NCBI GenBank assembly: GCA_030583805.1
Contig: CP129476.1
Location: forward strand, 509,429 to 573,428
Direction of reading: 5' to 3'
DNA length: 64,000 bases
Source of the DNA: Patescibacteria group bacterium
GTDB lineage: Bacteria > Patescibacteriota > Patescibacteriia > SG8-24 > DYFX01
The notes beneath the pieces are model-generated. The model worked only from the letters and a program-made list of their open reading frames with translations, was not told the origin of the DNA and did not search any database. Numbering within the stretch: position 1 is the stretch's first letter; every line of letters begins with the position of its first letter. Shown here one piece after another: positions 55,201 to 64,000 of this stretch. Position numbers and translations under genes: made by a program.

Positions 55201-58200
55201 CGCCGGTTGAGGCGTTGCCGCAAGCCGAGAGGCCCGGCGTCGAACCGACGAGCAAGCAGGCGGTCGTGCAGCCTGCGGCCGCCGTGCCGTTGGCAGGACC
55301 CGCATCGCACTCTTCGCCGCGATCCGCCTGGATCGCGCCGTCGCCGCAGCCATTGGCAAGCGTATTGCCGGTCAACAAGCAATTGGCGTTGCAACCGTTC
55401 AAACCGGGCGTGTCGCAGGCTTCGCCGCGCTCGAGGGTGCCGTTGCCGCACGCGGGCGTACCCGGCGGCTGGCTTCCCGTCATGAGGCAGTTCGTCGAAC
55501 AGCCGGCCGGAAGGACGGGGTTGGTATTGATCAATGTTCCCGGCGGCACGTCGGGCAAGAACGAGAAGGCAACCGGCGCGGCCGGGTTCTGCGCCTTGCT
55601 CCAAGCCCAGTTATAGGAAGCCGCGCTCAGGATCTGGCCGCCCGCCGCGCACGCATCAGGAGAGCTGAGCGGGAGCGCGTTCACCGCCGAAACCTGGCCG
55701 ATGTAACGCAGCGTCGTCTGCGAGGGTTCCACAATGACGCGCTGCGGGCCGCACGGATCGCCGGTAAGGCGCGTGCGGAAAATCCAGCTGAAGGCGTTGC
55801 CTTCGTAGTTCAATCCCGTAAGCGGCGCCTGGCTCGTGCTCATAGCCGTGCCGAGAATGACCGCGCGGTACCAGGTATTGGCCGCCAGAACCGGATTGCC
55901 GAACGTCAGGAGGCGCGACGCCGCGGTGTAGCTCGGAGCAAGCGGCACTTCGCCCTCGAAGGCGAGGCACGATTCGTTGCGGCAGCGGTACAAGCGGACA
56001 TTCGAAAGGATGCTGCCCGGTCCGCTCTCGATCATCGGCGTGTTGAAGTACGCGAAGCTCACGGAGTTCACGCAGGCCTGATCGCAATCATGCGGCCCGT
56101 AGTCCACCACGCGCGGGTTGGCGTAGTCGATCGTCAGCGTGCCCGCATCGCTAAAACCGTCGACGGTCGAGCGGATCTGGATCGGCGGACCAGGGTCTGT
56201 TTCGGAAACCGGCGTCGCGACGGCTTCGCATTGGCGCGAGCCGCCGAGCGAGACGATCGTCGCTTTTCCGGGATCGGTCGAAACCCAGTTCACCGTGCGT
56301 CCGTCGCACGAAAGAATCACGCAGCGGCTTGAAAGCGGGAAGGCTTGGTAGTCTTTGGTTTCGTCGGCGGCGGAAATCAAGGCGTTGCCCGGCTGTACGT
56401 CGACGCCCGAGAGCGTGCAGGGGCCCGCGCCCGTCTTAAAGGACGTAACGTAGGCGCCGCCCGCACGGCTGTCGTAGTTGCCGTCGAGCGGTTGCGCGCC
56501 GCGCTCCGGCGTTCCCAAGCTTTGCACCTGGTCGCGGATCGTCAGGCGGTACCACGTGTCCGGCTGGAGGCCGTTCACGGGCAGTACGAGCTGCGAGCGG
56601 CCATCCGTGTCGTAATCGACGATCGAAGGCGCGCCGGCCGAAGCGACGGGCGTGCAGGTGTTGGAAATGGTGGCGCCAGTGCCGCAAGCTTCGAAAATGA
56701 CGTTGGAAGCGTTGATCGTGGCCGGATCCATCGGCAAGCTGAAGCGCGCCGTCATGGCGCCCATGTCGGTGCAGACGTCGGTCATGCCTTTGAACGGATT
56801 CGGGCTCGGCATCGCCGACGGCGGCGAGACTTGGCACGTCGCGTTCTCCATTACGATCGGGAAGATCGGAATCGGGCCGGTTGAAAATTGCCACGCGAAA
56901 CCGCCGGCAGCCGCGGGAGCGCCGCACGACGCGCGGCACGCGCCGTCATCGCAGCAGCTGCGTCCGCTGCCGCAAGAGGCGTCGCCACCGCTTTCACGGC
57001 AGTCGCGTACCTGGAAATTGACGCCGTTCGATTCAGCCGGCGTGGCGCCGACAAACGTGCGCACGCGCACGGGGCCGGTCGTCGCGCCATCCGGAACGGA
57101 AGCGGCGATCGACGAAGACTGCCACTGGCCGATCGAAGCGGCGTTCTGGTTCTCATTGAAACGGACGGCATCAGGATGCAGCGCCGTGAAGGCCGGGAGA
57201 TCGGCGGCGGAAATCGTGCCGAAGCCGTCGCCGTACAACGTAACCGACGTGCCGACCGGACCGTTGTCGGGGTCGACGCGGCAGAGGCCGGGCGTGAGCG
57301 GGTCGGTGTTGATCGTGAACGGCACGGCGTTCGAAGCGCGGCCGTCGGAACGCACGACCGTGACGTTGTAGGCGCCGAGCGCCACGGCAGTGTCAGCCGG
57401 TGTCGTGAAACGCGCCGGCACTTTGACGGTCACGCTGGCGTTCGTCCAATAGCCCGCCGCGCATTGCGCCGGGAAGCTGATGTCGCCAACCGCCTCGCCG
57501 GCGGCGTTCCGGAAACGCACCGTGCCTCCGGATCCGAAGTTGGAACCAAAGACCGAAAGATACGTGCCCACGGAACCGTCTTCAGGCGTGAGGTATTCGA
57601 TGCGCGGTTCCGTTCCGGCCTCGGGAGGCTCGACGCGGATGCATGCGGGGTTCGAAGGCTGGCCGCCGACCGTCACGCGCAACAAGAAATTCGAGCCGTC
57701 AAAGTCGGTTTCGACGTTCGGAATGGTCGGCGAGAACGAGGTTTCGCTCCACGGCGACACCTGCGAGGCCTCGGCAGCCGTCGCCCAGTCCTGGATTTGC
57801 GAGCAGTCCGAACCGGCGCGCGTGAGCTGCACGCGCGAATCGCCCTGTCCGCCGCCGAAGGCGACGCCCGTCACCGTGACGGTATTGCCGGTTTTGACCG
57901 AGGTCGGAGCGACCGAGCAAATACCCGGGCGCGCAACGTCGTTCACTTGGAAATCGGTGATGATCGGTCCGTAGGCGTCGTTGGTCGCGTCTTGGCGGCC
58001 GCCGGAAGCCGTGACGCGGATCGGTCCCGTGACCGCGCCTTGCGGCACGAGCACGACGATACGCGTATCGCTCCAAGCGTTGGCACATTGCGCAACGGTC
58101 GCATCCTGTTCATCCCCCGCCGCGGCCGTTCCCAAGAACGTGACGGTTCCCGCCGTCGAGCCGAAGCGGTCGCCCGTGATCGTCACGAGGTTGCCGGGAC

Positions 58201-59530
58201 GGCCGTCGCGCAACTGCACGTCGGTGATTTGAGGATTCTCGACGCACTGGCCGTTCTGGCAGAGGCCGGAAGCGCATTGGCCGTTCTGCGTGCAAGCGCC
58301 GCCGGTGCACGCGCCGCAGGAGCCTCCGCAATCGACGCCGACCTCGTCTCCGTCGCGCACGTTGTTGAAGCAGAACTGCGGACGCACCGTGACGCGCACC
58401 GCGCTTGAGCTCGCGTTGTCGCCGTCGATATTGAAAGCGCGCGCCGAAAGCGAAACGGTGCGAACCGGCACGAGTCCGGCCGTGTCCCACACCGCCTCGC
58501 TCGAGTAGGTTGAGGGCGCGATGTTTTGCGCATTGCCGTCCGCCGTGAAGAAGGCGCCGTCAGCCAAGTATTCGACGGAAGCGATGCCGGCCTCGTCGGT
58601 CGCGATCGCCTGGATCGGCACGAGATCGCCGGCCGGCACGGACTGTCCGTCGGTCGGGCTCGAAATCGTGATCGTCGGCGGTTCCGTCAGCACCGTGTCG
58701 CCCGTGCGGAAGCTCTGCGAGCAGGTCGCCCCGAGACCGCAGCTGATCGTGCGCGGATCCGATGTCGAGGCGTTGCGAAGGCCGGCGCTCACCGTGATTT
58801 GATAGTCGGAGTTCTGTTCGAGGCAGCGCCGGTCGGCGTTCGGAGCCGGGCACGGCGTAACTGGACGCAAGCGGATCGTGAAATTCTCGACGATCGGCTC
58901 GTAGTCGACGTTCGTGCGCGTCGTGCCTTCGACTTTTTCAAGACGAATGTTGGCGCGGATGTTCGTCGCGTCGTCGGTCGGCGCGGCGCTGAACGTGACC
59001 GCCGCCGTGACGTCGTATTTGGCGAGCGAACCTGCCGGCTGGATGGCCGTCGGGCGGAAAGCGCCTCCCGTACCGCCGCCGAATCCGCCGCCTCCCCCGC
59101 CTCCGCCACCGCCGCCTCCCCCGCCGGGGCCTCCGGTCGTCGCGGTGATGAGGGCGCTCAGGACGTAGGAAACGATAGCGAAAGCCGACATGATGATCAC
59201 GAGACCGATCACCGCGCCGGAGAGCGTCTTTTTCGCCCGTTCGATCTTGCTTTCATCCCCCGCCGCGGTCATCCAGGTGAAGCCCGCGTACAGGATGAGC
59301 ATGAGCGCAATCGTGCCGAGTAGGCCGAGGCCGACGCGGATGATGCGCGCGATCGTGATGCGGATGTCGGCCGTGCCGGTGCCGATTTCGGCGCCGATCT
59401 GTCCGGGCAGGAGTTCGTTCGACGTCACGCTTTGCGCAAGCGCCGCGTCATGAGACGCGAACCACAAGCACGGCGCGAGCAGCGCCAGCGCAATGATCCA
59501 TGATCGATGACGTCGGAAGAACGCGCACAT
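49274..59530 (-). CDS. Giant (3418-aa) cell-surface protein. It has an N-terminal signal plus VirB2/TrbC-pilin-like double-TM anchor, a poly-Gly linker, multiple IPT/TIG-like Ig-fold domains, many myxococcus-type Cys-rich repeats (CGDG...EECDDGN), an EGF-like Cys module and a C-terminal beta-rich domain.
   Basis: N-terminus ...AALAQSVTSNELLPGQIGAEIGTGTADIRITIARIIRVGLGLLGTIALMLILYAGFTWMTAAGDESKIERAKKTLSGAVIGLVIIMSAFAIVSYVL then GGPGGGGGGGGGGGGGGFGGGTGG. IPT-like PQITDVQLRDGRPGNLVTITGDRFGSTAGTVTF.... Cys repeats CGDGVRNGSETCDDGANNGEYGFC, CGDGETNGDEECDGN, CGNGVIEGAEQCDDGAANSPNGAC, etc. Uninterrupted 10.26-kb ORF. Confidence 0.85.
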   Translation of the reverse strand: MCAFFRRHRSWIIALALLAPCLWFASHDAALAQSVTSNELLPGQIGAEIGTGTADIRITIARIIRVGLGLLGTIALMLILYAGFTWMTAAGDESKIERAKKTLSGAVIGLVIIMSAFAIVSYVLSALITATTGGPGGGGGGGGGGGGGGFGGGTGGAFRPTAIQPAGSLAKYDVTAAVTFSAAPTDDATNIRANIRLEKVEGTTRTNVDYEPIVENFTIRLRPVTPCPAPNADRRCLEQNSDYQITVSAGLRNASTSDPRTISCGLGATCSQSFRTGDTVLTEPPTITISSPTDGQSVPAGDLVPIQAIATDEAGIASVEYLADGAFFTADGNAQNIAPSTYSSEAVWDTAGLVPVRTVSLSARAFNIDGDNASSSAVRVTVRPQFCFNNVRDGDEVGVDCGGSCGACTGGACTQNGQCASGLCQNGQCVENPQITDVQLRDGRPGNLVTITGDRFGSTAGTVTFLGTAAAGDEQDATVAQCANAWSDTRIVVLVPQGAVTGPIRVTASGGRQDATNDAYGPIITDFQVNDVARPGICSVAPTSVKTGNTVTVTGVAFGGGQGDSRVQLTRAGSDCSQIQDWATAAEASQVSPWSETSFSPTIPNVETDFDGSNFLLRVTVGGQPSNPACIRVEPPEAGTEPRIEYLTPEDGSVGTYLSVFGSNFGSGGTVRFRNAAGEAVGDISFPAQCAAGYWTNASVTVKVPARFTTPADTAVALGAYNVTVVRSDGRASNAVPFTINTDPLTPGLCRVDPDNGPVGTSVTLYGDGFGTISAADLPAFTALHPDAVRFNENQNAASIGQWQSSSIAASVPDGATTGPVRVRTFVGATPAESNGVNFQVRDCRESGGDASCGSGRSCCDDGACRASCGAPAAAGGFAWQFSTGPIPIFPIVMENATCQVSPPSAMPSPNPFKGMTDVCTDMGAMTARFSLPMDPATINASNVIFEACGTGATISNTCTPVASAGAPSIVDYDTDGRSQLVLPVNGLQPDTWYRLTIRDQVQSLGTPERGAQPLDGNYDSRAGGAYVTSFKTGAGPCTLSGVDVQPGNALISAADETKDYQAFPLSSRCVILSCDGRTVNWVSTDPGKATIVSLGGSRQCEAVATPVSETDPGPPIQIRSTVDGFSDAGTLTIDYANPRVVDYGPHDCDQACVNSVSFAYFNTPMIESGPGSILSNVRLYRCRNESCLAFEGEVPLAPSYTAASRLLTFGNPVLAANTWYRAVILGTAMSTSQAPLTGLNYEGNAFSWIFRTRLTGDPCGPQRVIVEPSQTTLRYIGQVSAVNALPLSSPDACAAGGQILSAASYNWAWSKAQNPAAPVAFSFLPDVPPGTLINTNPVLPAGCSTNCLMTGSQPPGTPACGNGTLERGEACDTPGLNGCNANCLLTGNTLANGCGDGAIQADRGEECDAGPANGTAAAGCTTACLLVGSTPGLSACGNASTGVGEACDDGNSEGGDGCSSRCLLEGSRQNVYVCGNGALEPGEQCDYILGAGGLATQILVAGRPSVALGASDERNPTRPNFACGQSCLLRGNPVTCTAGTNCCGNGVIEPAKGENCDAAAENGDPSSGCSSRCTKTGSDPELRAFCGDTVVTVKPADVLTGIQNGGGEECEAPALDANIDPTQVVEARNQCDARNNCNASVTAAIGTVSGQGSVNVECSCRADSDCSAFGSNLSCGAGACCYPRPDAPDINPKGGNECRNVQISVQFGEEMNTGSLQGGLIVESCPSHAYNENGPRSWFARAASSIGRFFRSLVGLEVSASHICAPVEGTFTHTNVTAPDGTVRTLSTFAPRQMLSSSRLYRVTVRGGQTGVKTVKGVGYPETVDTIQDFTTGTDVCRFDVVQTTPATELIQDSAIPLTITATAMTDRGGRLEAIAPVPGVYDWTWSWATIPENATVGALLDLTAAAGASSATVQATKGINGQEQVAATARIQTDTALTPSTAGSDKIGKSSITIMLCQMPWPRRNILTGAWAPYVDPQTHFEFYYCRDNAGTSLPELMPQPVQGQSVGGSGLLRFCAATTDFSQPRACVSNADCNAGDTCRSKDLLFRFQPEWRVSDAIGMRVYENYDRLTPQEWYVAQRFSGKTEAATVDGYQAIKDERTVYVGAADKYGDPDIRSYIYVFAYNDNADPRTAEIFNRLVGNVNFNTNLVPSDRVTNVCKNAAGEILHLTAESTAPIMCSTDLDCVRALPAGPADMRCDSDKDKIRRDMRRWQDMRVIENALETTREQTGFYPKVESGSFVRGFTTSKWPSWSQQLGAAGAVVDPVNAFNRCEAFGSECSISRTACAADGDCAGGAGDVCRPTFEAETCYNDTLGVFACPAHSHVYQYRSIGGIDYRMSVDFEYVTYQWLGTSCAAKTSLFSCEAALGCSWIPTGPTTGNCTTRISITPVCAGLPSPTAPKACLTTGAACTASAECSVQDVCMPIGVPLVGPAAGGACGNGLLEGTEACEIGQTRNVACASGGQSLESCNAACEWQVQTACPGPAACGNGSLETFAGESCDDGAQNGQYGRCRSGSLGCVKRCVNITKRAAFDGNCADGSCDLAQACATNSDCSGLPFPSVCTDRMNFCGDGVRNGSETCDDGANNGEYGFCAWDCRGAGPRCGDGETNGDEECDGNQATAPGVCIPSGSSLADTNGASSNYASCSSNSDCASGETCALCAVTPGGLPQTRAKSCKPATEPVGEACTFNDWSVCRPSGACGNGVIEGAEQCDDGAANSPNGACLTSCRLNVCNDGFVRSGVEQCDNGAANGVLCTPQYGSVCNYCKNDCSIETISGAFCGDRTITAPPETCDPGPVTAWCSRTYQNPADTSGVKGCTTNNDCLPGVCRNYPGASTPSAAAPSKQRFARSDVAIPMYGPLGEAALRFAGTIATFATCGPGECNAGVPGDTTPPVIGPITTAPTSPNTADSVVITVSDVTDAAALVDNIDIYLTTAGVKVLRQTCRYNPRLASAACSVNVGALSAGIHVISIDAFDGNGNMSTRDQNLTVTTASGGGPPRVDIGDTGTSFDPGYTPYTGTGTSAPEGAPCRSASDCVSGQYCQGGEGQCIAFNTQCQPEPYTNTQAAATARKCKVNGRLCTNDAECGANGPCVAYRMDGSCNYCSNACFGTNAKSPAFCGDSVRQTQFGEQCDGQGDPQARGQGTTYVCRNDCVYDPNGGYCGDGIIHSAYGEVCDNNTFAGGSAPSCASQGAGTAGQVLCSRGCGLYTGGCDNGTLLPGDFRFKISWPTPHNAANEVDLYVKAVYSSGPLAGQTKYFGWKASAADTRYVGNGNFAADHIRLFWDVTGGTHATDPEIMVLSTQSLPQGTYHVFANGGSCFVDGNYANMPEFNRNSGWWKAASATIKSNSIFTIESGSDASVSGVTSGTTRLLSSVSDISGNPCMWYIGRIDKTAASPEGRFTMKNKYVNRADGPNASD
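59068..59135. repeat. GC-only simple repeat (ggc/ggg/gga codon run on the coding strand) encoding the poly-Gly linker of the giant protein
   Basis: Plus-strand ccgccgccgaatccgccgcctcccccgcctccgccaccgccgcctcccccgccggggcctcc. It is a homopolymeric-codon tract prone to slippage. Confidence 0.7.
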
Positions 59531-59533
59531 AGG

Positions 59534-61321
59534 TTATGGGAGGAAACCGCAGGCGACCTGCGAGGGTACGCCGTTGCAGCAGAACGCTTCGTTTCCGGTG
59601 CAGACCGTTTGGCCCGCGCCCGGATAGAAGCAGTTCTGACGCAAGTCGCGCAGGCCCGAAGTCAGGCTGAGCGCGTACGGCTGGTTGATCGACAAGAGAT
59701 CGTGGTCGATGATGCCTTTCGTCTGGTCCGGATCGCCGCCGGCGACCGAAGAAACCGACTCGGTCGCGAGCGAGAAGTTGGTCGGAGCGCCGTTCGCGCC
59801 GGGCACGAGCTTCGCGTTATCGCTCGTGAAGCTCGCCGAGCTCATGAGCTTCGAGAACGTCACGGACATCGGCAGATCGCGGGCGATCGAGCCCTGCAGC
59901 ACCGCCGGTTCGTGCGAAACCACGACAGGCGGCACGAGATCGATTTCGTTGGAGGTGCGGAAGTCGTAGTCGTAGTCGTCGTCCGGAGAACCTTGCGCCG
60001 CGCCGTTGCCGTTGCCGTCGAGCGAATTGCCCGCCATGTCGGTGATGCCGTTCGGAGGATAGATGCCGAGCGGCGGCGCGGCCGTGAGCGCGTCGGCGCG
60101 GACGCTGACGTTGATCTGCTGGTTGGCCGGGAGACAGAAGACCTGCTCGCCGCACGAGTTCGTGCCGCACGATTCGTCCGTGCGGAATTCGACGGTGCGG
60201 TAGGCGTTGCCGATTTGCTCCCGGCCCGCGACGACGTTGCCGCCCGACCGCGTGATGGAGAAGCCGGAGCCGACGCTGACCGGATCGATCGCTTCATTGA
60301 ACGTGACGTGGACGAGCGAGTTGCGCGGAACGCCGCTCGCGCCGTCGGCCGGCACGACGTACGAAACCTGGGGCGGCGTAAGATCGAGTACGGTCGACAC
60401 TTGGAACTCCCAGAGATAGCCGGAGTTGAACGTGCCGGTGAAGGCCGGAGCACCCCCGTCGCGCCGCACGCCGTCGGTGCCGCCGCGAAGCGCGATCGTA
60501 TAGAAGACGTTTTCCGTCGGGCTGCCGAAGCAGTTTGCCGGACAGTTGCGCTGCAGGAACGTGAAGCTGCGGCCGTCGGCCGAAACGGCGACGTCGATGT
60601 CCGCGGCCGTCAGGCTCTGGGCGAATTTCTGAGGGAATTGATTCGAAGCCGCGCCCACGTCGACCGATTTCAAGATGGCGACCGTGGCATTGGCTCCGCC
60701 CACGACGATCGAGGCGGGATCGATGCGCTGCTTGAAAGTCACGACAACGCGCGTGTTGCGCGCGACGCCGGTGGCGTTGCGATTCGGGTAGTGGCTTTCG
60801 ATGATGCCGTTGCCCAAGGCGCCCGCCGGACACGTCGCGGAAAGGCCGATGCAGGCGATATCGTTCGGCGCGCTGGAACCGCCGCCCGTGCCTCCCCCGC
60901 CGAGCGCGCCGCCCTCGCCGAGCAGCCTGCTGATGACGAACGAGGTGATGGCGAACGCCGACAGCATAATCACGAGGCCGATCACGGCGGACGTCAGGAT
61001 TTTCTTGGCGCGATCGACCTTCTCGGGATCGCCGGCAGCCGTCATCCAAATGAAGCCGGCGTACAAGACGAGGAGAAGCGCGATCGTGCCGAGGAAACCG
61101 AAGAATGCGCGAATGATGCGCGCGATCGTGATGCGGATGTCGCCCGTGCCGGTGCCGATGACTTCGCCGATCTCGGTCGGCAGCACTTCATTCGACGTGA
61201 CGCCTTGCGCCTGCGCGACATGCGCGAATGCGTAAGACGCAAAAACCACCAACACGAAACTGGCGACCGTGAAGGTGGCTTTGACGAGCGTTTGGGAGAG
61301 TGACTTCCTTCCTGAGAGCAT
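59534..61321 (-). CDS. 595-aa surface protein sharing the VirB2/TrbC-pilin-like N-terminal anchor and Gly linker with the giant gene, then Ig-like/BIG-like beta domains and a Cys-rich C-terminus
   Basis: ...AQAQGVTSNEVLPTEIGEVIGTGTGDIRITIARIIRAFFGFLGTIALLLVLYAGFIWMTAAGDPEKVDRAKKILTSAVIGLVIMLSAFAITSFVISRLLGEGGALGGGGTGGG.... A stretch of ~60 nt is nearly identical to the giant gene (gatgcgcgcgatcgtgatgcggatgtcg.ccgtgccggtgccgat). Confidence 0.8.
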   Translation of the reverse strand: MLSGRKSLSQTLVKATFTVASFVLVVFASYAFAHVAQAQGVTSNEVLPTEIGEVIGTGTGDIRITIARIIRAFFGFLGTIALLLVLYAGFIWMTAAGDPEKVDRAKKILTSAVIGLVIMLSAFAITSFVISRLLGEGGALGGGGTGGGSSAPNDIACIGLSATCPAGALGNGIIESHYPNRNATGVARNTRVVVTFKQRIDPASIVVGGANATVAILKSVDVGAASNQFPQKFAQSLTAADIDVAVSADGRSFTFLQRNCPANCFGSPTENVFYTIALRGGTDGVRRDGGAPAFTGTFNSGYLWEFQVSTVLDLTPPQVSYVVPADGASGVPRNSLVHVTFNEAIDPVSVGSGFSITRSGGNVVAGREQIGNAYRTVEFRTDESCGTNSCGEQVFCLPANQQINVSVRADALTAAPPLGIYPPNGITDMAGNSLDGNGNGAAQGSPDDDYDYDFRTSNEIDLVPPVVVSHEPAVLQGSIARDLPMSVTFSKLMSSASFTSDNAKLVPGANGAPTNFSLATESVSSVAGGDPDQTKGIIDHDLLSINQPYALSLTSGLRDLRQNCFYPGAGQTVCTGNEAFCCNGVPSQVACGFLP

Positions 61322-61807: not shown

Positions 61808-62059
61808 TTAACGATGAGTACGTTTCTTGGCGCGGAGGTCTTCTTCTTTCAGCTTGCCGCTTTTGAGCAGATACTCGCGGCGGGCGGCCAGGAACTGGCG
61901 GCGGAGCGCGGCGTCGCGCTGGCCGTTCTTGTTCTTTTCAGCCGTGTGAAAACGGGTTTTCTTGGCTTGCAGAACGCGGCCGGACTGCTGAATGCGGCGG
62001 CTGAAACGACGAAGCAGAGCTTCAAAGCTCTCTCCCTTTTTGCGTTTGACTTCAACCAC
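61808..62059 (-). CDS. rpsU: 30S ribosomal protein S21 (GTG start)
   Basis: MVEVKRKKGESFEALLRRFSRRIQQSGRVLQAKKTRFHTAEKNKNGQRDAALRR.... AAGGAAGG SD is 8 nt upstream of the GTG. Confidence 0.85.
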   Translation of the reverse strand: MVEVKRKKGESFEALLRRFSRRIQQSGRVLQAKKTRFHTAEKNKNGQRDAALRRQFLAARREYLLKSGKLKEEDLRAKKRTHR

Positions 62060-62090
62060 AACAATACACCTTCCTTTCTACTTAAAAATA

Positions 62091-62107
62091 GTGAGACCGG
62101 GTCTCAC
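62091..62107. promoter_or_regulatory. Perfect 17-bp palindrome gtgagacc-g-ggtctcac about 32 nt upstream of the rpsU start, in the 5' leader/promoter of the long rpsU...pyk operon; candidate operator or leader hairpin
   Basis: Seen in the sequence. Its function is inferred only. Confidence 0.3.
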
Positions 62108-62146
62108 AAGCACAGTACCAGAGCGGGAAACGAAGGTCAATAAGGC

Positions 62147-62175
62147 AAAAATCCGCCGGTTAAGGCGGATTTTTG
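62147..62175. terminator. Bidirectional terminator-like hairpin aaaaatccgcc-ggttaa-ggcggattttt
   Basis: Perfect 7-bp stem with A-run and T-run on either side. It lies about 290 nt beyond the stop of the 62462..62791 minus-strand gene and upstream of the rpsU promoter. Confidence 0.5.
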
Positions 62176-62461
62176 GGGAGATTCTCAAGTAATTTTGCCT
62201 ATATCAACCGCTAGTCCTGCACGAGGAATACGCGGCATATATCATGCCGCCTACAACAGACCCCTATTTTCACGCAAGTCTAAGGTGTCCCTTTGGTGTC
62301 AGGTACGGATACTTGCAACCTGATAGGACAACGCCGTCGCCCCGTCATACTCATGGCCAGCGAAAGCGCGCTGACCGACACCTACTCCGGTTTTTTCGAT
62401 GGTTTCGACCATGTCTCAAACGGGTCGCTCGGTCTTTCGCGCTTATGGAATCATGGAGCCA

Positions 62462-62791
62462 TTACACCGACATCAGTTGATGAAGTGTCAACCAGAACCC
62501 ATAAACACTTACCAGTGCAACAACTAACATTGCAGTATTCAGTATTAAGTATTTGTTTCGATGTATCACGATACTAGTAATCGGCAGGGCGAGCAGGACA
62601 AGGAAATAGATACTCACCACCATGACTCCTGCCGAAGTGGCATAAGTGGCCACGGCGAATATTGAGACAGGAATGATGGCAAGGGTTTGAAGAATCTCAC
62701 CACTCCAGAGCGAAGCAACAAGCAAGATGGCGTGCATGACAAGCAGGATAACCTCGAAATCAACTAGAAGTCTTTTATAGATGTCGCGCAT
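62462..62791 (-). CDS. Small membrane protein in the low-GC patch (start taken at MRDIYKRL)
   Basis: Three hydrophobic helices. The codon usage is AT-rich and unlike the core genes. Confidence 0.35.
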   Translation of the reverse strand: MRDIYKRLLVDFEVILLVMHAILLVASLWSGEILQTLAIIPVSIFAVATYATSAGVMVVSIYFLVLLALPITSIVIHRNKYLILNTAMLVVALVSVYGFWLTLHQLMSV

Positions 62792-62944
62792 ATGTGCTGT
62801 TAGTAGCCGAAGAGTCCCGAGAAGAGTATGCCGAGGAGACCACCGTTCAACGCACCTACACGCTGTTGTTGAGTCGTCGTATCGCGGGGAGAATTGCCCC
62901 AAGCATACCACGGTGCCATGTCCATAGCGGCATGATTTCCGTTG

Positions 62945-63599
62945 GTATCGGTACCTGGTACTTAGGGGTCAGGTGAGAACCGCGTGGTACTCACCAATCT
63001 TTGATACGCACTTTGGCGCTCTAGGTCGGTTGCACCGAGCGTTTCGTAAAAAGGATCGACGGTCACGAGCGGATCAGTCTCTCCAAAAGCGTACACTCCA
63101 TAGCTTGAATAGTGCCATTTTTCTGGCGATGCGACGAGTTTGGCGCGGACTGGGTTCATTTCAATGTAATTTCCACAGGCAAAGAGATACGGATCAGTAG
63201 CGACGATCAGGCTTTTGAAGCGCCCTTGCCAAACATGCCCCACAAACTTGTATTTCTTGCAGTACCGCTTAGCGAACGGCATCTGCACGGCGTGCATGAA
63301 GGAGGAAAGGTCCGAAGTGGGCTTCGCCAAGATGTGCACGTGGTTTGGCATGAGGACGTAGTGATAGATCGTCACTCTGTGATCCTTGGCCGCGTTCAGT
63401 AGGTATTTAAGATACGCATCGTAGTCGTCGGCGTCATGAAAAACACGCATCTTATTGTTGCCACGTACGATGACGTGATAGATGCCGTCGGGGACGACAA
63501 CATAATTCCGGAGCGCTCTTGGCATAGCGCTCCGGATCTACAACACGGTACTCAATTCATGCAAGCCTCACCTGGCACCTGGGTACCAGGTACCGATAC
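62945..63599. mobile_element. IS200/IS605-family or RAYT-like element (about 655 bp): a Y1 HUH transposase gene flanked by imperfect 33-bp terminal inverted repeats with a perfect 17-bp core
   Basis: Left end gtatcggtacctggtacttaggggtcaggtgag (62945-62977). Right end ctcacctggcacctgggtaccaggtaccgatac (63567-63599). The 17-bp core gtatcggtacctggtac / gtaccaggtaccgatac is an exact reverse complement. Low GC. Subterminal hairpin ggtgag...ctcacc at 62972-62995. Confidence 0.7.
62962..63525 (-). CDS. Y1 (HUH) transposase, IS200-like / REP-associated tyrosine transposase
   Basis: MPRALRNYVVVPDGIYHVIVRGNNKMRVFHDADDYDAYLKYLL...YHYVLMPNHVHILAKP...VGHVWQGRFKS.... The HxH (HVH) motif and the catalytic Tyr region are present. 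187 aa. Confidence 0.85.
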   Translation of the reverse strand: MPRALRNYVVVPDGIYHVIVRGNNKMRVFHDADDYDAYLKYLLNAAKDHRVTIYHYVLMPNHVHILAKPTSDLSSFMHAVQMPFAKRYCKKYKFVGHVWQGRFKSLIVATDPYLFACGNYIEMNPVRAKLVASPEKWHYSSYGVYAFGETDPLVTVDPFYETLGATDLERQSAYQRLVSTTRFSPDP

Positions 63600-63606
63600 A
63601 CGATGA

Positions 63607-63928
63607 CGCGATTGGGCGAATCAGGATACGGCGAGCAAACGCCATTAAGCGCGTTCCGACGCTTCATATGCGAAATGTCGTCGATGAGGCGGTGCGGCAA
63701 TTCAGCGCGTCGGTACGGCGAGGGTTGGTGAAGTTCAGGGACGACATTCCCGGGTGGCAGTTCATCAAGAGCCATGTCGAGAAGGTGATCTATCACCGCA
63801 GCAAGGTGACGCTGATCGGCTCGGTGCCGATTGGTGACGATGCGTCAGAGGCCAACAGGATTCCGTTTAGGATCGACGGGCAGATCCAGCGACACATGAG
63901 ACGCGATCCGAATGCGATAATCGCTTAG
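63607..63928 (+). pseudogene. Probable 3' gene remnant. The open frame runs out of the right inverted repeat with no plausible start context (an ATG appears only at 63668).
   Basis: The frame ...DDAIGRIRIRRANAIKRVPTLHMRNVVDEAVRQFSASVRRGLVKFRDDIPGWQFIKSHVEKVIYHRSKVTLIGSVPIGDDASEANRIPFRIDGQIQRHMRRDPNAIIA-stop is continuous back into the IR. This could be the C-terminus of a gene disrupted by the insertion, or element-encoded. Very uncertain. Confidence 0.25.
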
Positions 63929-64000
63929 GCTGCGATGAAAAAGAGTGCCCGCATCTGTGGGCACTCTTTTTCTCAACGACTACCGACAACGCGGCACTAT

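Follow-up and report, generated by a model that had tools for sequence, protein, structure and literature searches.

TIRtrons, as described by Di Nocera et al. (2013), consist of a gene for a tyrosine transposase associated with terminal inverted repeats (TIRYT), a protein resembling the repetitive extragenic palindrome (REP)-associated tyrosine transposases (RAYTs), set between long terminal inverted repeats (TIRs) that are unrelated to GTAG REPs (PMC3733652). Many of these TIRs share the motif GGGGWSAS, some overlap the ends of the gene (PMC3733652), and TIR copies apart from the gene are known in some genomes (Di Nocera et al. 2013, PMC3733652). TnpA-Y1 class 2 is defined by the tyrosine motif Y---NP (PMC6006769), and Quentin et al. 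(2018) placed 20 of the 26 described TIRYTs in its subclass 2.1 (PMC6006769), which is marked by the motifs NHVH (or NH[YF]H), W[EQ], YIELNP/Y[IV]HLNP and a proximal SS (PMC6006769, Table 1). Most of this subclass, which corresponds to RAYT Group 1 as defined by Bertels and colleagues (2017, PMC5581495), carries a C-terminal helix-turn-helix (HTH)-like domain (Bac_DnaA_C, HTH_23 or HTH_28), and its median length is 238 aa (PMC6006769). The name TIRYT appears in just two works of the searchable literature, and the biochemistry of these proteins is absent from it. Here we describe a locus near the right-hand end of a 64-kb stretch of DNA (64,000 nucleotides, hereafter the window; positions 509,429 to 573,428 of contig CP129476.1) from a Patescibacteria group bacterium, in which a gene for a class-2 Y1 HUH endonuclease/transposase (tnp; 62962..63525, minus strand, 187 aa) stands between two inverted repeat arms. 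The locus is very likely a TIRtron, with a RAYT-like TIRYT of TnpA-Y1 class 2 and subclass-2.1 type enclosed by cognate 33-bp TIRs, and as such it is an additional, short and HTH-less member of a known, barely studied class, residing in a Patescibacteria genome.

The tnp gene, recognized from the list of open reading frames (ORFs) together with Pfam and NCBIfam, reads from an ATG at 63523-63525 to a stop codon at 62962-62964, and its product carries the motifs YHVIVRGNN, LMPNHVHIL and HVWQGRF by which an earlier note on this DNA had correctly recognized a Y1 HUH transposase. The protein matches Pfam Y1_Tnp (PF01797) with E=1.6e-13 and 51.3 bits against a cut-off of 23. Its key residues are H62-V-H64, W99-Q100, Y120-IEM-N124-P125 and S140-S141, and since H62, H64, Y120, N124 and P125 are invariant among 58 homologues, both the metal site of the HUH fold and the Y---NP catalytic motif of class 2 are intact. 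The sequences PNHVH, HVWQ, YIEMNP and WHYSSY correspond to the subclass 2.1 motifs (Table 1, PMC6006769), an assignment made by motif comparison only, without a subclass hidden Markov model. The best NCBIfam model is REP_Tyr_transpos, at 77.4 bits a near miss just under its cut-off of 80, and a profile built from the 58 homologues retrieved TnpA_REP (4ER8) from the PDB with E=4e-11 and ISDra2 TnpA (IS200/IS605) with about 7e-4. With the IS200 equivalog model of NCBIfam the protein reaches 22.1 bits, where the cut-off is 55, and its tyrosine motif reads Y---NP in place of Y---Q, in keeping with the earlier opinion that this is no classical IS200. The resemblance to RAYTs proposed at the same time holds in part: the protein is indeed nearer to RAYT/TnpA_REP, but the arms are not REPs and the precise class is TIRYT/TIRtron.

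The upstream arm, relative to tnp (63567..63599), has its outer end, ...CCGATAC, at 63599 and lies 41 nt from the ATG, and the downstream arm (62945..62977), with its outer end GTATCGG... at 62945, overlaps the last four tnp codons and the stop. Across 33 nt the two are complementary at 29 positions (88%), with the outer 17 nt perfect, which bears out the previously noted repeat of 17 perfect and 33 imperfect base pairs; the best inverted-repeat score in 62700-63850 was 21, above all of 60 dinucleotide shuffles (mean 9.5, maximum 13), and the arm 17-mer was never matched when the window was shuffled 100 times. An exact GGGGWSAS is present in the downstream arm (GGGGTCAG, 62965-62972). The arms start with GTATC and are without a GT[AG]G tag, and no significant hairpin was found in either of them, as the DNA folding of each arm alone, on both strands, gave z of -0.3 to -1.4 against shuffles. 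They are true terminal inverted repeats and not REP-type palindromes. The target-site duplication for which the earlier note had suggested looking is not present at the element ends (ccgttg against acgatg). Nor did the 64-kb window, part of a genome of about 1.17 Mb, yield any further copy of the repeat outside 62185-63599, and tnp is its only Y1 gene; the REP/REPIN-like scatter that had been anticipated finds no support in the other 62 kb. The 90% cluster of tnp has a single member on a single contig. A scan of genome contigs with the degenerate pattern GTATCSGTACCTGRYAC returned at least 119 loci, mostly chance matches, and the source genome is not among the matches listed.

The layout of a gene between TIRs extends well beyond this locus. 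Relatives of tnp numbered more than 530 proteins and more than 529 metagenome loci, and their layout was compared on the 80 best metagenome loci encoding them. Nearly all of these that have enough flank, about 70 loci, carry a 14-40-nt inverted repeat to either side of the gene. At 44 of 71 homologous loci both sides have an inward-pointing GGGGWSAS, with at most one mismatch, compared with 5 of 71 for a reversed-orientation control. In the closest subclade the arms have the consensus GTATCSGTRCCTGRYACC..RGGGWCAGGT, and homology between copies always stops at the outer GTATC/GATAC; locus L122, for instance, has a 34-nt repeat, 97% complementary, of the same sequence family as the window arms. 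More distant relatives retain elements of the arm sequence: a homologue from a cultured organism, on a P. aeruginosa plasmid (38% identity, annotated just as 'transposase'), has 37-38-nt TIRs containing GGGGACAG, and a Gaiellaceae Y1 gene 29% identical to tnp is flanked by 41-nt repeats that hold the same GTATCGGTACCTGGTACC as the window arms. Arm copies without a nearby Y1 gene occur in other genomes (L061, L015), and L123 and L124 have inverted TIR dimers with spacers of about 24-70 nt upstream of the gene, so that TIRs can occur separately from it. The few relatives that have a source annotation bear the names Patescibacteria or Omnitrophica. The short (about 185 aa), HTH-less form of TIRYT is widespread in environmental metagenome assemblies, and the gene-between-TIRs architecture is close to universal for it.

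Compared with described systems, the locus thus shares with TIRYTs and TIRtrons the motifs NHVH, WQ, YIE[LM]NP and SS, long non-GTAG TIRs, GGGGWSAS, one TIR that overlaps the 3' end of the gene, a low copy number, extra TIRs that are single, dimeric or grouped in some genomes, and plasmid homologues. It departs from subclass 2.1 TIRYTs in its length of 187 aa and in having no detectable HTH of the DnaA_C/HTH_23/28 kind, from described TIRYTs in its host, as the Patescibacteria (candidate phyla radiation, CPR) are a taxon not named in PMC3733652, PMC6006769 or PMC5581495, and from other TIRtrons in the closest subclade's own arm consensus with its near-palindromic GGTACCWGGTACC core.

Several observations on the wider repeat family are recorded here in their own right. 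The repeat GTATCGGTACCTGGTACCGGYCGTGTCC occurs on several contigs of Gaiellaceae, Actinomycetota and Actinomycetes metagenome-assembled genomes, with two contigs in each of two such genomes; in L034:4589-5265 and L097:1382-2054 it forms 39-41-nt inverted repeats around a distant Y1 gene (195 aa, 29% identical), it is also found in L003, L013, L027, L030, L032, L047, L058, L079 and L089, and it holds the exact 17-mer of the window arms despite very different Y1 proteins. At L061:6270-6355, an intergenic solo TIR copy is accompanied by a tandem pair of incomplete copies of its terminal portion (ACCAGGTACCGATAC) and sits between terminator-like hairpins, beside what by eye are tRNA-like sequences, with no Y1 gene within 8 kb. 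Upstream of the TIRYT gene (232 aa) of L196, a 3.4-kb stretch (L196:500-4700, also in L192) contains 8-10 direct copies of the TIR-like 26-mer AAAAATGGGGTCAACTCTATTTTTC, spaced about 600 bp apart and separating pairs of small ORFs that resemble toxin-antitoxin genes (HicA/HicB-like by eye). A single inverted copy of the 26-mer lies downstream of the TIRYT gene, and the arrangement is reminiscent of a recombinase gene with a cassette array next to it. Eight loci (L029, L031, L033, L055, L082, L104, L113 and L118), the first four of which are labelled Solirubrobacteraceae or Solirubrobacterales, share the stretch GTCGAGGTATCCGTACCTGACACGACATCCATG...CAATCTAGGGCAT containing a variant of the 17-mer. 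The segment ...CCTCCTCNCCGTATCGGTACCTGATACG... shared by the CPR loci L021, L045, L059 and L091 (the first three Peregrinibacteria, Patescibacteria and Gracilibacteria) is probably a piece of a conserved gene rather than a TIR.

A strong hairpin lies over the tnp start (63507..63536, minus strand), in which 63507-63517 and 63526-63536 form a perfect 11-bp stem with a folding energy, as DNA, of -15.1 kcal/mol (z=-6.0; equalled by 0 of 200 shuffles). It encloses a GGAG ribosome-binding site and abuts the tnp ATG, and it probably limits translation of tnp, which would keep expression low. In the family the hairpin is not kept, with z below -2 in 3 of 79 homologues, a figure equal to that of an internal control; a similar start-codon palindrome is found in the relative L120, and the hairpin is specific to the lineage of the window. 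The subterminal hairpin of the earlier description is therefore real, but because it lies on the start codon of tnp and is not conserved, it is unlikely to be a recognition site of the transposase. In the leader itself (63526-63566, minus strand), the blocks GCTTGCRTGAA and TGTTGTAG are conserved in the closest relatives and recur at the equivalent positions of L121-L123 and at 62239-62279 in a stub considered below; TGTTGTAG contains GTAG about 12-15 nt ahead of the start codon.

Immediately outside the upstream TIR, on the plus strand, a large serine recombinase gene is represented by a 3' remnant, recognized by HMMER and tblastn and comprising the last ~109 codons (63600..63928). The frame is open from before 63521 to a stop at 63926-63928, with its first in-frame start at ATG 63668, and the 86-aa ORF at 63668-63928 is annotated as hypothetical protein QY323_02990. 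A word-indexed homologue search with the remnant recovered the remnant itself alone; a full HMMER scan gave 138 matches, of which the longer align at their C-termini and the long ones carry Resolvase, Recombinase and Zn_ribbon_recom domains, and the last ~100 residues of the remnant align with the C-terminal region of the full-length recombinases P0136, P0174 and P0189 and of CPR relatives. When ten recombinases were compared with the window by tblastn, all alignments began at 63599-63605 and together they span 63599-63925; the homology proper covers 63602-63892 and starts at the outer edge of the TIR. The frame leaving the right-hand repeat is thus the end of a gene, as had been suspected. 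Its similarity to large serine recombinases (Resolvase+Recombinase+Zn_ribbon_recom, about 570-580 aa) is C-terminal only: tblastn with the ten recombinases finds no trace in the window of the ~460 codons missing from the N-terminus, and Pfam gives no match on the 86-aa ORF, which, as it is without the Resolvase, Recombinase and Zn-ribbon domains for catalysis and DNA binding, cannot act as a recombinase. The accompanying idea that the two flanks are halves of one gene fails, as the left flank holds a membrane-protein ORF on the opposite strand and the window has no N-terminal recombinase sequence. The remnant is closed by a terminator-like hairpin (63937..63972, plus strand; 17-nt arms, 94% complementary). 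Many of its other matches in the HMMER scan are also short proteins, and L205 has one of 126 aa without a nearby Y1 gene.

The age of this junction can be judged from L120, a 608-bp contig in which a tnp 5' end with a start-codon palindrome is followed by the upstream TIR and, after that, by the remnant of the same recombinase. Its TIR is identical to that of the window at 25 of 33 positions (counted by hand) and its remnant shows 69% amino-acid identity (tblastn). L120 is without the 66 bp just outside the TIR (63600-63665, equal to 22 in-frame recombinase codons), so that the TIR is joined directly to the ATG of the remnant, and a deletion anchored at the TIR edge is the sole structural difference between the two. 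The remnant ORF is intact in both (63668-63928 in the window, L120:204-467; 86 and 87 aa), with a synonymous divergence (dS) of 0.88 and a nonsynonymous to synonymous ratio (dN/dS) of 0.19, and the N-terminus of tnp gives proportions of nonsynonymous and synonymous differences (pN and pS) of 0.32 and 0.80. Because so diverged a relative (dS ~0.9) shares the tnp-TIR-recombinase junction, the junction predates a long divergence, and tnp and, unexpectedly, the 86-aa remnant evolved under constraint. A second, independent junction is present in L203 (2952-4364) and L204, where a different TIRtron abuts a 5'-truncated large serine recombinase, P0123, which is the best non-orthologous match of the remnant and has about 218 codons left. 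Its Y1 protein is 224 aa long and 32% identical to tnp, and its perfect 32-nt TIRs are of unrelated sequence, still containing GGGGACAG. Both the recombinase frame and the homology again start from the TIR's outer edge, and the relative orientation is the one seen in the window. The depths of truncation at these loci thus correspond to ~218, 109 and 87 remaining codons. The link between TIRtrons and recombinases is suggestive and not general, as no recombinase neighbours the gene in any of 82 other TIRYT loci and two more seemingly truncated recombinases (no Resolvase in the called protein) proved to be a frameshifted gene and a partial at a contig edge, both unlinked to Y1.

The element lies within a low-GC patch (62000..63650) that extends between rpsU (S21; 61808-62059, minus strand; S21 and YqeY were identified by Pfam) and the recombinase remnant. 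Its GC fraction is 0.46-0.52, compared with 0.62-0.69 over 56000-61000, so the AT-rich surroundings reported earlier are confirmed, and the patch is what decay has left of an integrated element. It also contains the 5' stub of a second TIRtron (62185..62312, minus strand). A third copy of the repeat at 62280-62312, in which the arm 17-mer has 3 mismatches, might be taken for a solo REP, an interpretation that is ruled out by the TIR, leader and codons that make up the stub: read on the minus strand, an upstream TIR (62280-62312) and a leader are followed by the first 17 codons of a pseudo-ORF (MPRIPRAGLAVDIGKIT*, 62185-62238), colinear with TIRtron 5' ends, and the stub ends beside the rpsU terminator. 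It is 82% identical to L122 over 105 nt and 68% identical to the resident TIRtron over 62 nt (score 67 against a shuffle maximum of 11); being nearer to L122 than to the resident copy, it represents a different lineage of the same subclade. The stub and the resident element are 632 bp apart, and the patch has received or held two TIRtrons and lost most of one.

The membrane-protein ORF of the left flank (62462..62791, minus strand; 109 aa from ATG 62791, at most 149 aa from GTG 62911) is small and hydrophobic and occupies the interval from the outer end of the stub TIR to that of the downstream TIR; it is low in GC and has no Pfam, NCBIfam or PHROG match. As a conserved passenger gene it was rejected, there being no similarity to the ORF at the equivalent place of L122, and its membership in the element is uncertain. 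The low-GC patch contained no tRNA, above-threshold Rfam family or sigma-70-like promoter. Within 62139-62240, a terminator-like hairpin at 62146-62175 separates rpsU from the stub; the rnk leader of Pseudomonas gives a weak Rfam match overlapping it (30.5 bits, where the gathering score is 55), probably by chance. Farther to the left, at 59507-61321, ORFs of 598 aa (plus) and 595 aa (minus) overlap on opposite strands; the Arg/Ala-rich plus frame is probably an artefact of high GC, and the minus frame resembles a secreted surface protein.

Other explanations of the locus have to be measured against this evidence. One is an active insertion sequence, IS200/IS605-like with TIRs, whose recent transposition as a unit divided a large serine recombinase gene. 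In its favour are the start of the recombinase frame and homology exactly at the TIR outer edge, the independent junction of similar form in L203/L204 (where the TIRs are unrelated and the Y1 is only 32% identical), the nearby stub of a second TIRtron and the plasmid-borne homologues, in three places in one P. aeruginosa plasmid. An HUH/Y1 catalytic core is also shared with IS200/IS605 (IS608, ISDra2 TnpA), so the chemistry is presumably of the same single-strand cut-and-ligate kind. Against it, the N-terminal ~460 recombinase codons are neither across the element nor elsewhere in the window; no target-site duplication marks the ends, the window has one Y1 gene in 64 kb in a single-member, single-contig cluster, with no multiple identical copies seen, and the same junction in a relative at dS ~0.9 makes the event an old one. 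The 22 bits from the IS200 model (cut-off 55), the Y---NP in place of Y---Q, TIRs in place of dissimilar subterminal hairpins, and the lack of tnpB likewise separate the element from IS200/IS605, and we hold an active insertion sequence to be quite unlikely.

A canonical RAYT or REPtron, that is a domesticated transposase with flanking REPs that maintains a genome-wide REP/REPIN population, would explain why REP_Tyr_transpos is the best NCBIfam model at 77.4 bits and why TnpA_REP of E. coli (4ER8) is the best structural relative by sequence. With the latter, tnp has in common the class-2 Y1 fold, Y---NP, the first place among PDB relatives by profile and inverted flanking cognate repeats, as well as a gene that is apparently single-copy in a locus that looks vertically inherited; REPIN-like inverted dimers and solo copies of the repeat family do occur in other genomes. 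Set against these likenesses are a score that stays under the curated cut-off of 80, arms that begin with GTAT and not GT[AG]G and are not tagged hairpins, and the want of a dispersed high-copy population in the 64 kb, of which the remaining 62 kb have no copy of the repeat where an E. coli-like REP density predicts several; a REPtron is accordingly a very improbable description of the locus. The notion that the inverted repeat has nothing to do with the gene, being a chance or structural feature such as transcription terminators or regulatory sites belonging to its neighbours, could appeal solely to the overlap of the downstream arm with the 3' end of the gene. A score far above shuffles speaks against it, and since the same architecture with related sequence is conserved in homologous loci from different samples and phyla, it is already refuted and retains next to no probability.

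The TIRtron assignment itself has to accommodate several features that weigh against it. The protein lacks the C-terminal HTH, and no second Pfam domain with E at or below 0.1 was found either in it or in ten longer homologues; its 187 aa fall short of the subclass 2.1 median of 238 aa; the GC content of tnp, about 52%, is odd for long residence in a 65% GC genome; GGGGWSAS is degenerate in the upstream arm (GGTGCCAG, 2 mismatches); the copy number of gene and repeat covers 64 kb of the ~1.17 Mb genome; and binding, cleavage site and panhandle substrate are all proposed by analogy.

Following the paradigm of IS608 and TnpA_REP (PMC6006769), we propose that the TIRtron enzyme may recognize the conserved blocks of the arms, the near-palindromic GTRCCTGRYACC and the GGGGWSAS-like block. 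Single-stranded DNA would then be cleaved at the outer boundary, GATAC, by way of a 5'-phosphotyrosine intermediate and joined again, in the manner of IS608 TnpA and E. coli TnpA_REP. Because single arms do not fold, the substrate would most likely be an arm-to-arm pairing, as a panhandle or as short inverted TIR dimers, on an exposed lagging-strand template, and the outcome may be either movement of TIR-bounded segments or deletions anchored at a TIR end. The host site is the remains of a low-GC integrated element whose large serine recombinase was cut away up to the TIR outer edge. The resident TIRtron copy is old and mostly sedentary, and the stub 632 bp away shows repeated TIRtron traffic and decay at the site. 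A broader reading is that TIRtrons of Patescibacteria move or act as whole units and that TIR-anchored deletions repeatedly behead serine recombinases, thereby freezing integrated elements while the C-terminal ORF is kept functional. The two independent junctions, the three truncation depths, the remnant dN/dS of 0.19 at dS 0.88 and the nearby stub are compatible with this broader reading, which we advance as a speculative and rather unlikely generalization.

In summary, the locus is mainly a clean example of a TIRtron rather than something new. For annotation, the name to use for the gene is TIR-associated tyrosine transposase (RAYT-like), not IS200, and for the adjacent 86-aa 'hypothetical protein' it is serine-recombinase remnant. 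The leads of note are the junctions with recombinases, the remnant ORF under constraint and, in L196, the array of toxin-antitoxin genes separated by TIRs. Within the HUH Y1 family, TIRYTs make up a large branch that has hardly been studied, and the arm consensus of the closest subclade is conserved enough for the direct design of binding and cleavage substrates.

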